The notes: a model not told the origin generated them from the letters alone. A stretch of 64,000 nt of DNA from Saccostrea echinata (GCF_033153115.1 NW_026889751.1:22506001-22570000), one strand, 5' to 3'; shown: positions 3,689 through 5,386, counted from the stretch's first letter. Made by a program: numbers and translations.

Positions 3689-5386
3689 ATGATGGACCCC
3701 CGTACCAGTGCCCAGGATGTGATGCGATGTGACCTGTGTGAGACCGCTGTGGTACAGATGCACTGTGATACATGTCTTGTCAACCTGTGTAAGGCCTGTG
3801 TGGGAGAACACATCTCAACAGGTGAATCAAAGGATCACATGGTCGTCAAATTTCAGGACAGACAATCCACTCCCCTCTACCCTACATGTACATTTCATAA
3901 TAAAGATCGATGTGTAATGTACTGTAATCAGTGTGACATTCCTGTCTGTCTTGGCTGTCTTGCATCAAAACAACATTTAGGTCATGAATTATCTAAACTC
4001 TTACAAGTTCTGGATGAAAAGAAGGACATGATTCTAAAAGAAAGAAATGAATTAAATGATACAATTTATCCAACCTACCAGGACATTGTCTCTGATGTAC
4101 AAAACAGAATGAGTCAGTTAGAAAAGGAATATGGGGATCTCTCAACAGCCATTACAAAACATGGAGAGGACTGGCACAGAGAAATTGATAAACTTGTCAA
4201 GAAACGTAAAGCTGAAGTTAATGAGATGAAAAACACACAGTTACAAACTCTACAGAAACATCTGGGTGAAATAAACAAGAAAATGTCTGACATCAAGGAT
4301 GAAATCAATTCCATTGAAACTGCTATAGACACCAATGACTTGTCAAAACTATTTAGTGTCACATCCAATGTACACACACACAGAAATCTTCCACACAGAA
4401 TTATACCATCTTTACCTAAATTCATTCCAGGAAAAATCCATGGAGAAGAACTTGATAAAATGTTTGGAGCCTTATCATCAAGTTCTTTAACATCAGATAA
4501 ACATGGCTACAGCATGAAGACACGTCAGAAATCACCAGAAGCTGGATTCTCTCCTCCAGTCAAACAGCTGATTGATGAACCAAAGACTGTCACCACCATA
4601 AAAACTGAGTATAGCTATAATCTTTACAATGTGGTCTGTCTGAGTGATGAAGAAATCTGGACAAGTGGAGATGACAGCATCATGAAACTCTACAGAATCA
4701 ATCAGGGATCACTACTCAAGTCAATTAGAACCAAGTCAGGGAAATGGCCATCTAACATAGCGGTGACAAAAAGTGGAGATTTAGTTTATACTGATTACAG
4801 AAATAGAACTGTGAACATTGTGAAGAATGAGAAGATAGAGGAGGTGATCAGACTACAGAACTGGAGACCTAATAGTGTCTGTAGTACCTCCTCTGGTGAC
4901 CTCTTGGTTATCATGGACAGTGATAATAAAAAACAAACAAAAGTTGTCTGTTATTCTGGCTTCACAGAGAAACAAAGCATTCAGTTTGATGATAAAGGTA
5001 AACCTCTCTATTCACCTAGTTCTGGTTATCTAGGGTACATAACTGAGAACAAGAACCTGGATATCTGTGTGTCTGATGAGGGAACTAAAGCAGTAGTGGT
5101 GGTCAATCAGGCCGGGAAACTGAGATTCAGGTACACTGGACATACTCCTGCTCCAAACAATGAACCATTCAATCCACTAGGAATCACCACAGACAGTCAG
5201 AGTCACATCCTTACAGCTGATCGTAACAATCACTGTGTCCACATCATAGATCAGGATGGACAGTTCCTCCGTTACATAGACTGTGGACTGAGTCTACCCT
5301 GGGGACTGTGTACAGATACAAATGACAATCTGTTTGTTGCTCAATTGTTAAACAAACAAGTGAAGAAAATCAAATATCTGCAGTGA
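3689..5386 (+). CDS. RING-less TRIM-like protein: two B-boxes, coiled coil, NHL-type beta-propeller (565 aa), single coding exon
   Basis: [19 protein letters not shown] (B-box 1); CTFH..C..YCNQCDIPVCLGC..HLGH (B-box 2); heptad-rich middle; NHL-like repeats ([25 protein letters not shown]). Nested antisense in the duplicated PSME4 intron 41. Confidence 0.92.
   Translation: MMDPRTSAQDVMRCDLCETAVVQMHCDTCLVNLCKACVGEHISTGESKDHMVVKFQDRQSTPLYPTCTFHNKDRCVMYCNQCDIPVCLGCLASKQHLGHELSKLLQVLDEKKDMILKERNELNDTIYPTYQDIVSDVQNRMSQLEKEYGDLSTAITKHGEDWHREIDKLVKKRKAEVNEMKNTQLQTLQKHLGEINKKMSDIKDEINSIETAIDTNDLSKLFSVTSNVHTHRNLPHRIIPSLPKFIPGKIHGEELDKMFGALSSSSLTSDKHGYSMKTRQKSPEAGFSPPVKQLIDEPKTVTTIKTEYSYNLYNVVCLSDEEIWTSGDDSIMKLYRINQGSLLKSIRTKSGKWPSNIAVTKSGDLVYTDYRNRTVNIVKNEKIEEVIRLQNWRPNSVCSTSSGDLLVIMDSDNKKQTKVVCYSGFTEKQSIQFDDKGKPLYSPSSGYLGYITENKNLDICVSDEGTKAVVVVNQAGKLRFRYTGHTPAPNNEPFNPLGITTDSQSHILTADRNNHCVHIIDQDGQFLRYIDCGLSLPWGLCTDTNDNLFVAQLLNKQVKKIKYLQ

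Follow-up and report, generated by a model that had tools for sequence, protein, structure and literature searches.

A large RING-less B-box/NHL gene family of oysters with selection concentrated on one predicted propeller face: a candidate repertoire of intracellular pathogen sensors

Bivalves must recognize a wide variety of pathogens inside their cells although they lack adaptive immunity, and studies of oyster herpesvirus and Perkinsus have repeatedly returned TRIM-annotated genes to which no mechanism is attached. A stretch of 64,000 nucleotides from Saccostrea echinata (GCF_033153115.1 NW_026889751.1:22506001-22570000; hereafter the window, with positions counted from its first letter) contains two copies of a gene of this kind. 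A first-pass annotation, made from the sequence alone, had proposed that they belong to a RING-less, intronless family that diversifies the binding face of its NHL propeller like an innate immune receptor. The question raised by this locus is whether such a diversified face exists across the family and, if so, what it might recognize.

The first copy (copy 1) is an intact gene with an in-frame TAA at 3680-3682, directly 5′ of its start. Its structure was predicted by AlphaFold2 from a 105-sequence alignment. The two copies and the parts of the first are as follows:

3692-5386, plus strand: coding sequence of copy 1, a single intact exon for 564 aa (B-box, B-box, coiled coil, linker and NHL propeller, no RING)
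3728-3838, plus strand: B-box 1, aa 13-49 (PF22586 with E 1e-4, below the cut-off; second PF00643 stretch)
3881-3997, plus strand: B-box 2, aa 64-102 (PF00643, E 7.6e-10)
3989-4324, plus strand: long coiled-coil helix, predicted, aa 100-211 (AlphaFold2 helix H100-211)
4325-4567, plus strand: linker, aa 212-292 (low confidence, pLDDT below 50 for 212-287)
4568-5380, plus strand: six-bladed NHL beta-propeller, aa 293-563 (24 predicted strands, pLDDT mostly 85-95; PF01436)
22356-24054, plus strand: copy 2, tandem paralogue (90% DNA identity to copy 1; 1-nt insertion at 22954)

The B-boxes characteristic of TRIM (RBCC) proteins are clearly present (PF00643 in two stretches, 39 bits against a cut-off of 24), with Cys/His residues invariant in 105 sequences, including C13, C25, C28, C33 and C36 of B-box 1, and the coiled coil that should follow them corresponds to the predicted helix 100-211. 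The family does appear to be RING-less, as had been proposed: the Pfam scan found no RING in copy 1, PF00097/PF13445 matched none of the 120 homologues listed, and no CxxC was present in the open frame of 1-84 aa upstream of the start in any of 67 copies (sampled as described below). Some copies may still have a coding exon further upstream, but in copy 1 the in-frame TAA stands after the acceptor-like site. The absence of introns holds for the coding sequence, which is a single exon, but it probably does not extend to the 5′-UTR, where an intron is likely because a pyrimidine-AG, acceptor-like site lies at most 45 nt upstream of the start in 44 of the 67 copies. The Pfam scan also gave no match to a filamin-type Ig domain (PF00630) before the NHL domain, residues 212-287 being low-confidence coil in the model, and B30.2/PRY-SPRY is absent, the C-terminal domain being NHL by both Pfam and Foldseek. 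Since a B-box stands at the N-terminus and no hydrophobic leader or membrane helix is apparent in the predicted model of copy 1, the protein is probably cytosolic. The best Foldseek matches of the propeller were the NHL domains of human TRIM2 and TRIM3 (TM(target) 0.76-0.80), which were also the best phmmer matches (E 1e-20); TRIM71, Thin and Brat ranked behind them in both searches (Brat at Foldseek rank 17 versus rank 1 for TRIM2/3, and at E 4e-13 in phmmer), with identities of 14-24%.

Within the window, the nine motif pairs and both indels by which the first-pass annotation distinguished the two copies are all present, as judged from their ORFs and from a DNA alignment with a 3-nt gap at 4614 and a 6-nt gap at 5035. 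Its description of B-box 1 and the coiled coil as almost identical is also accurate (3 of 57 residues differ in the former and 8 of 107 in the latter, residues 104-211). Two features had been overlooked. In B-box 2, 12 of 46 residues (26%) are unlike between the copies, a higher share than in the propeller as a whole (38 of 260, 15%), and the 1-nt insertion at 22954 shifts the frame of copy 2 ahead of its propeller, so that this copy may be a young pseudogene or reflect an assembly error. The claimed clustering of propeller differences is real for this pair, in which the encoded amino acid differs at 25 of 88 top-face codons and at 13 of the 172 in the remainder of the propeller (Fisher p=2.3e-5), and the top-face differences are overwhelmingly non-synonymous (Nd 35.2 versus Sd 3.8).

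The two copies are members of a very large family. A genome search with the propeller returned 1,342 candidate copies, 143 of which were scored (identity 61-100%), and a search with the N-terminal half returned 1,347 candidates, 150 of them scored. Of the 143 scored copies, 110 can be read through for 550 aa or longer with no stop, and the other 33 are broken or short. The scored copies lie mostly on contig C2, between 16 and 33 Mb, with more clusters on C13, C27 and other contigs, which represents a clustered, lineage-specific expansion of the finTRIM/TRIM5 type. For the analyses below, 70 of the 143 scored copies were sampled (the best 30, and 40 lower matches chosen for long open frames), and removal of three broken ones (L003, L004 and L005) left 27 close and 40 farther paralogues, 67 in total. 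Outside this genome, 2,786 of 7,995 scored proteins matched at E below 1e-30, and the propeller matched 436 clusters (50% identity) at 1e-30; the closest database proteins carry names from Saccostrea echinata, S. cucullata and Ostrea edulis. The homologues are labelled 'TRIM2-like', 'TRIM71-like', 'TRIM55-like' or 'pyrin-like', which are best-hit names for one family, and since the genes are already annotated in public databases the expansion itself is in plain view. Extra propeller repeats occur in some homologues of 770-980 aa (P0001-P0007, P0016 and P0115), which may be tandem propellers or merged gene models. In the ESM Atlas, similar molluscan B-box/NHL clusters were found, followed lower down (ranks 24 and 26) by RING-bearing molluscan and echinoderm clusters, which are possible ligase partners or ancestors.

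Across the 67 paralogues, mean column entropy is lower in the propeller (0.85 bits) than in B-box 2, the coiled coil and the linker (1.15-1.19), which implies a conserved frame with few hypervariable columns; the variability of the propeller is thus bimodal and not raised on average. The most variable columns fall in the same top loops in 104 named database homologues (25 of 25) and in 88 distant representatives, namely those of 148 unnamed ones that passed a coverage and identity filter (23 of 25).

The top surface of an NHL propeller is formed by its b-c and d-a loops, according to the available text of Loedige et al. (PMC4015489). Codons of the oyster propeller were divided, using the list of predicted strands, into 12 top loops (93 codons), 11 bottom loops (46) and a remainder (126), a classification that follows the strand order of the AlphaFold2 model rather than a surface calculation, was drawn with the entropy profile already known, and includes the first residues of some strands in the top class. 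GY94 site models were fitted with our own implementation, using naive empirical Bayes and the branch lengths of a FastTree nucleotide tree with one fitted scale factor. For the propellers of the 27 close paralogues, models with positive selection were strongly preferred (M1a/M2a 2dlnL 672, omega2 9.0, p2 0.098; M7/M8 2dlnL 712; M8a/M8 646), and many sites have dN/dS far above 1, as the first-pass annotation had anticipated. Posteriors exceeded 0.95 at 24 codons, of which 23 are on the top face as classed above, none among the 46 bottom codons (Fisher p=5e-5) and one in a strand, with at least one selected codon in each of the 12 top loops. Rather than scattering over the structure, the variable sites fall on the top face of the predicted propeller, where 19 of the 23 codons are coil in the model and four (392, 394, 496 and 537) lie at the top ends of a-strands. 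In the coordinates of copy 1, the selected top-face codons identified by the site models are as follows (column entropy also contributed where indicated):

4613-4621, plus strand: codons 308-310, d6-a1 top loop, an indel site
4670-4672, plus strand: codon 327, b-c loop of blade 1
4742-4753, plus strand: codons 351, 352 and 354 around conserved P353, d1-a2 loop (also column entropy)
4799-4801, plus strand: codon 370, b-c loop of blade 2
4865-4873, plus strand: codons 392 and 394 around conserved P393, top end of strand a3 (also column entropy)
4928-4930, plus strand: codon 413, b-c loop of blade 3
5021-5032, plus strand: codons 444, 445 and 447, d3-a4 loop, an indel site
5078-5089, plus strand: codons 463 and 466, b-c loop of blade 4
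5177-5179, plus strand: codon 496 (P+1 of F-x-P-x-G), top end of strand a5
5222-5233, plus strand: codons 511 and 514, b-c loop of blade 5
5294-5302, plus strand: codons 535 and 537 around conserved P536, d5-a6 (also column entropy)
5345-5350, plus strand: codons 552 and 553, b-c loop of blade 6, overlooked in the first-pass annotation

The signal persisted when the four indel-prone loops were removed (2dlnL 426), with F61 codon frequencies (625), with double and triple substitutions permitted (447, omega 7.5), with the tree inferred from the scaffold codons alone (830) and with the window gene left out (649), and it was significant in six of six blade segments when each was placed on its own tree (2dlnL 57-90). 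The 40 farther paralogues alone gave 2dlnL 559 and omega 5.0, with 20 of 20 sites on the top face, and all 67 paralogues gave 2dlnL 1,220 with 21 of 21. Simulations under the neutral model did not exceed 3.0 in any of six replicates. The N-terminal 297 codons gave a weak signal (2dlnL 20, omega 2.1, three sites), the sites being codons 65, 87 and 107 in B-box 2 and at the start of the coiled coil. Tree-free estimates agree: in the close set, pN/pS was 1.96 [1.51-2.59] in top loops, 0.36 in bottom loops, 0.60 in strands and 0.33-0.57 in the N-terminal regions, and in the farther set 0.91 in top loops and 1.45 at the 23 sites, the lower values there being probably due to saturation. The claim that the family diversifies the binding face of its propeller is thus upheld, and positive selection in C-terminal loops is a feature that it has in common with finTRIM/TRIM5-type families. 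A local mutation hotspot was considered and ruled out, since four-fold sites beside selected codons are not more divergent than those elsewhere (0.038 versus 0.058). The sole selected site off the top face, codon 420 (4949-4951), is Arg in 42 and Cys in 21 of 67 copies, and codon 527 likewise toggles between Arg (45) and Cys (15), which possibly reflects CpG mutation rather than selection.

The composition of the selected sites is unusual. Tyr and Trp together make up 17.9% of residues at the 23 sites versus 0.2% in bottom loops and 0.9% at 39 variable N-terminal sites, about four times the 4.2% expected from codon frequencies; Arg (10.8%), Asn (11.2%), Asp (8.8%) and Tyr (12.9%) are all frequent. 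Enrichment in Tyr and Trp is typical of antibody binding loops, and Arg and aromatic residues also bind RNA. The 23-residue signatures differ among all 67 paralogues, with a mean of 18.7 differences. Net charge, as a residue count and not an electrostatic calculation, averages +1.1 on the top face (range -5 to +6; +3 or more in 22 of 67 paralogues and -3 or less in six) and -7 in the bottom loops. Top-face positions are hypervariable, R372 and R/K448 being partly conserved, and no invariant basic residue was found on this face among the 67 paralogues.

Synonymous difference is very uneven within the exon (approximately 0.25-0.32 in codons 31-120 and 211-270, 0.02-0.09 in the propeller and 0.05-0.12 in the coiled coil), and a set chosen by N-terminal similarity, which is not independent as it shares 17 of 25 genes with the close set by genome position, showed the same pattern (0.254 and 0.202 versus 0.069-0.071). 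Propeller divergence rises little with N-terminal divergence (slope 0.017 versus 0.21 if proportional; 0.10 versus 0.30 in the N-terminally chosen set), and the trees of the two gene halves reject each other (AU p below 1e-4; one of 24 splits shared), although AU tests reject too readily on near-star trees and slopes become shallower with noise. Taken together, these patterns suggest that gene conversion likely homogenises the scaffold and the coiled coil. If so, omega is inflated, and it indeed falls to 5.0, and top-loop pN/pS to 0.91, in the farther set. B-box 2, although diverged among paralogues, is under purifying selection (M0 omega 0.31); its synonymous divergence (pS 0.40) exceeds that of every other part of the gene, which suggests old, divergent B-box lineages. 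A direct test of recombination speaks against conversion, and shuffling of loops by conversion tracts is unsupported: in a PHI-like test close sites were not less incompatible (0.424 versus 0.386 overall, p=0.995), and similarity in one loop did not predict similarity in the next (mean rho 0.006 at distance 1).

Each of the two copies is flanked by PSME4 exons on the opposite strand, and those of the duplicate around copy 1 are as follows:

7560-14340, minus strand: partial PSME4 (PA200) duplicate exons (PF23096 above the cut-off in three of eight frames tested; block homology)

Copy 1 is antisense within an intron of this duplicate and was co-duplicated with it. HEAT exons are located at 7.5-14.3 kb and 24.8-33.3 kb, and the C-terminal exons form four sets, including those at 16.5-17.5 kb and immediately left of the window, whereas the middle exons occur as one set at 42-45 kb; this arrangement implies a local tandem unit consisting of the 3′ part of PSME4 and the nested NHL gene. 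The HEAT exon tested has only three genomic copies, and the unit is thus local and does not explain the expansion of the family. The PSME4 array as a whole occupies 7560-17481 and 24800-45300 on the minus strand (contig C2:22457840-22551285). One duplicated exon shows nine synonymous and no non-synonymous codon differences, and four other frames, some including intron edges, show 1-7 synonymous versus 3-6 non-synonymous differences; the duplicates, which are downstream and similarly oriented, might act as alternative 3′ ends. A transposon carrying the NHL genes was also considered and rejected: flank homology stops within a few hundred bases upstream and approximately 60 bases downstream except among tandem neighbours, and no mobile unit shared among loci was thus found.

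Several other elements were observed in the window. Degenerate relics of the family start (the first ~18 codons; 81-91% alike to most paralogue starts) lie upstream of both copies, at 2960-3013 and approximately 19380-19450 on the plus strand. A DIRS-type tyrosine-recombinase retrotransposon at 47937-53636 (plus strand) has a gag-like ORF, a reverse transcriptase split over two frames, and matches to a Dam-like methylase and an integrase in overlapping frames, the reverse transcriptase match alone being above the cut-off. A dispersed repeat at 2480-2761, with an inverted copy at 58673-58955 and a tRNA-like head, is by eye a probable SINE; many reads of the RNA runs fall on it, and they repeatedly skip 43 nt bounded by GT..AG at 2614-2658. 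Arrays of tandem repeats of ~125-170 bp by GACA/GGAC microsatellites occur at 1037-2325, 9530-10495, 18623-19360, 19973-21650, 34594-37429, 40339-41376 and 60049-61181, and the part at 35416-36087 yields a spurious repeat ORF of 223 aa; arrays of this sort are linked to oyster Helitron-type elements.

The family is transcribed in a related oyster, in which 5,944 of 12.8 million and 5,099 of 11.3 million records in two poly(A) RNA libraries matched positions 2400-5600, including some on the upstream repeats. Read depth spans the coding sequence and all but vanishes at 3363-3576 and past 5400; as most of the reads show 90-95% likeness, they indicate transcription of the family in another species rather than of copy 1. 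Oyster TRIM-annotated genes have been linked to disease in studies whose available text names them by annotation only: transcripts that are mostly TRIM2/3-like, 79 of them in one module, track Perkinsus tolerance (PMC9892467), and TRIM-annotated genes are associated with OsHV-1 survival (PMC9437489) and Marteilia infection (PMC9679248). No prior description of the architecture of this family or of selection on it was found in the literature covered, which lies outside subscription journals, and nothing relevant, judged by title, was found among oyster, bivalve or mollusc papers on NHL or B-box. The terms 'NHL' and 'B-box' are absent from the portions available of PMC13093298, PMC9679248, PMC9646362 and PMC8905726, and the portion of PMC6723221 contains nothing on a RING-less B-box/NHL family.

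We consider it reasonably probable (roughly 60%) that this RING-less B-box/B-box/coiled-coil/NHL family with a diversified top face serves as a germline-encoded repertoire for sensing pathogen molecules inside the cell, because selection limited to one binding face, in hundreds of copies, is suggestive of an arms race against foreign ligands that keep changing. The likeness to an innate immune receptor is one that we infer by analogy. By analogy with TRIM biology, the coiled coil would form a dimer with two propellers, the B-boxes could cross-link such dimers on a repetitive target as in TRIM5alpha, and each paralogue would use its top face to bind its own rapidly evolving foreign epitope, which is more likely to be protein than nucleic acid. 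Without a RING, the effect might be exerted by clustering or trapping the target, or by recruitment of a partner ligase or of autophagy. The repertoire would be renewed by tandem duplication and loss, with a scaffold probably homogenised by gene conversion. A bolder version, which we offer as tentative, is that of a thousand-member, antibody-like oyster repertoire in which gene conversion keeps the NHL scaffold uniform, twelve CDR-like loops are selected towards Tyr/Trp/Arg and the B-boxes provide avidity.

Other readings have to be weighed against a sensor repertoire. An RNA-binding repertoire similar to Brat or LIN-41 that chases fast-evolving transposon transcripts or viral RNA and silences them by way of the NHL top face, as an RNA-level analogue of the KRAB zinc-finger expansions, is in our opinion unlikely. 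The arrangement of two B-boxes, coiled coil and NHL without a RING does resemble that of Brat, the window is rich in repeats, including the DIRS-type element, and Arg and Tyr account for 10.8% and 12.9% of residues at selected sites; moreover, the weakly positive top and strongly negative bottom of the oyster propeller match the polarity of Brat, whose top face is its RNA-binding site in the available text of PMC4015489. However, TRIM71 depends on fixed arginines, according to the part of PMC9634614 available, whereas the oyster top face has no invariant basic residue and reaches a charge of +3 or more in just 22 of 67 paralogues, with 6 of 67 at -3 or less. The nearest solved folds are those of TRIM2/3, for which the same part of that source judges Brat-like RNA binding unlikely, and the near-random 11-16 residues per site exceed what a four-letter ligand would seem to need.

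Quite improbable, in turn, is a role in discrimination of self from non-self or between cells (allorecognition, gametes or transmissible tumours), or as decoys against effectors that target host TRIM-NHL proteins. Any arms race would fit diversifying selection on one surface, and a missing RING would be in keeping with a decoy or dominant-negative role, but the protein is probably cytosolic, with a B-box at its start and no leader or membrane helix in the model, and decoys are expected to mimic one target rather than to randomise a face over hundreds of copies. That the pattern is neutral, reflecting relaxed loops of redundant copies or an omega above 1 produced by recombination, multi-nucleotide mutation or misalignment, is very improbable, and this reading has been largely refuted. 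It could draw on the very uneven synonymous divergence along the gene, the disagreement of the half-trees, the 33 of 143 scored copies that are broken or short, and the indels in two selected loops. However, the bottom loops, which are equally exposed, have a pN/pS of 0.29-0.36; the signal stays without the indel loops, with multi-hit rates and with per-blade trees; Tyr and Trp are at four times the neutral expectation; and pN at the 23 sites in the independent farther set (0.56) is higher than pS in every region (0.28-0.51).

If the bolder, antibody-like version of the sensor repertoire were true, the repertoire would represent the principal cytosolic recognition system of bivalves still lacking an explanation, and the recurrence of 'TRIM2/3-like' genes in oyster disease-resistance studies would be explained. 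Behind TRIM labels there is one very large RING-less family in which only the binding face of the propeller evolves fast, and the approximately 23 codons named here should set specificity, which makes these genes candidate loci for breeders. The evolutionary mode of TRIM5 and finTRIM would thereby extend to the NHL domain, hitherto regarded mainly as a conserved RNA-binding module.

Among known systems, Brat has the same RING-less layout of two B-boxes, coiled coil and NHL. Its top is positive and its bottom negative, as is the case on average in the oyster family; in contrast, Brat is one conserved protein that acts as an RNA-binding repressor and keeps its top-face residues fixed, in the available text of PMC4015489, and it is a weaker sequence and fold match than TRIM2/3. 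TRIM2, TRIM3 and TRIM71 provide the closest solved fold, a six-bladed NHL propeller with the top face as binding surface, and share the B-box and coiled coil; however, the layout of their class is RING, B-box, coiled coil, filamin and NHL (from the portions available of PMC2533329 and PMC9634614), and mammals have few TRIM-NHL genes, with one-to-one conservation, whereas the oyster family is massively expanded, has two B-boxes, a hypervariable top face and neither RING nor filamin, and is only 14-24% identical. The oyster gene is not an orthologue of TRIM2, TRIM3 or TRIM71, as it lacks both RING and filamin domains. Birth-and-death clusters with selection on one ligand-binding surface are also known from plant NLR LRRs, sea-urchin TLRs, bivalve C1qDC proteins and nematode F-box/MATH adaptors, which differ in fold, C1qDC proteins and TLRs being extracellular or membrane-bound. 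The closest parallel in evolutionary mode is provided by finTRIM and TRIM5alpha, which are likewise lineage-specific, clustered TRIM expansions with recombination within the family and positive selection in C-terminal ligand-binding loops; in the available text of PMC2657112, finTRIM comprises 84 copies (versus ~1,300 oyster candidates) with 16-17 selected sites, 14 of them in variable loops, and its induction by virus has been demonstrated. The oyster family, an invertebrate one with NHL in place of B30.2/PRY-SPRY, may by analogy work like finTRIM and TRIM5alpha while not being a member of that group, having neither a RING nor a B30.2 domain.
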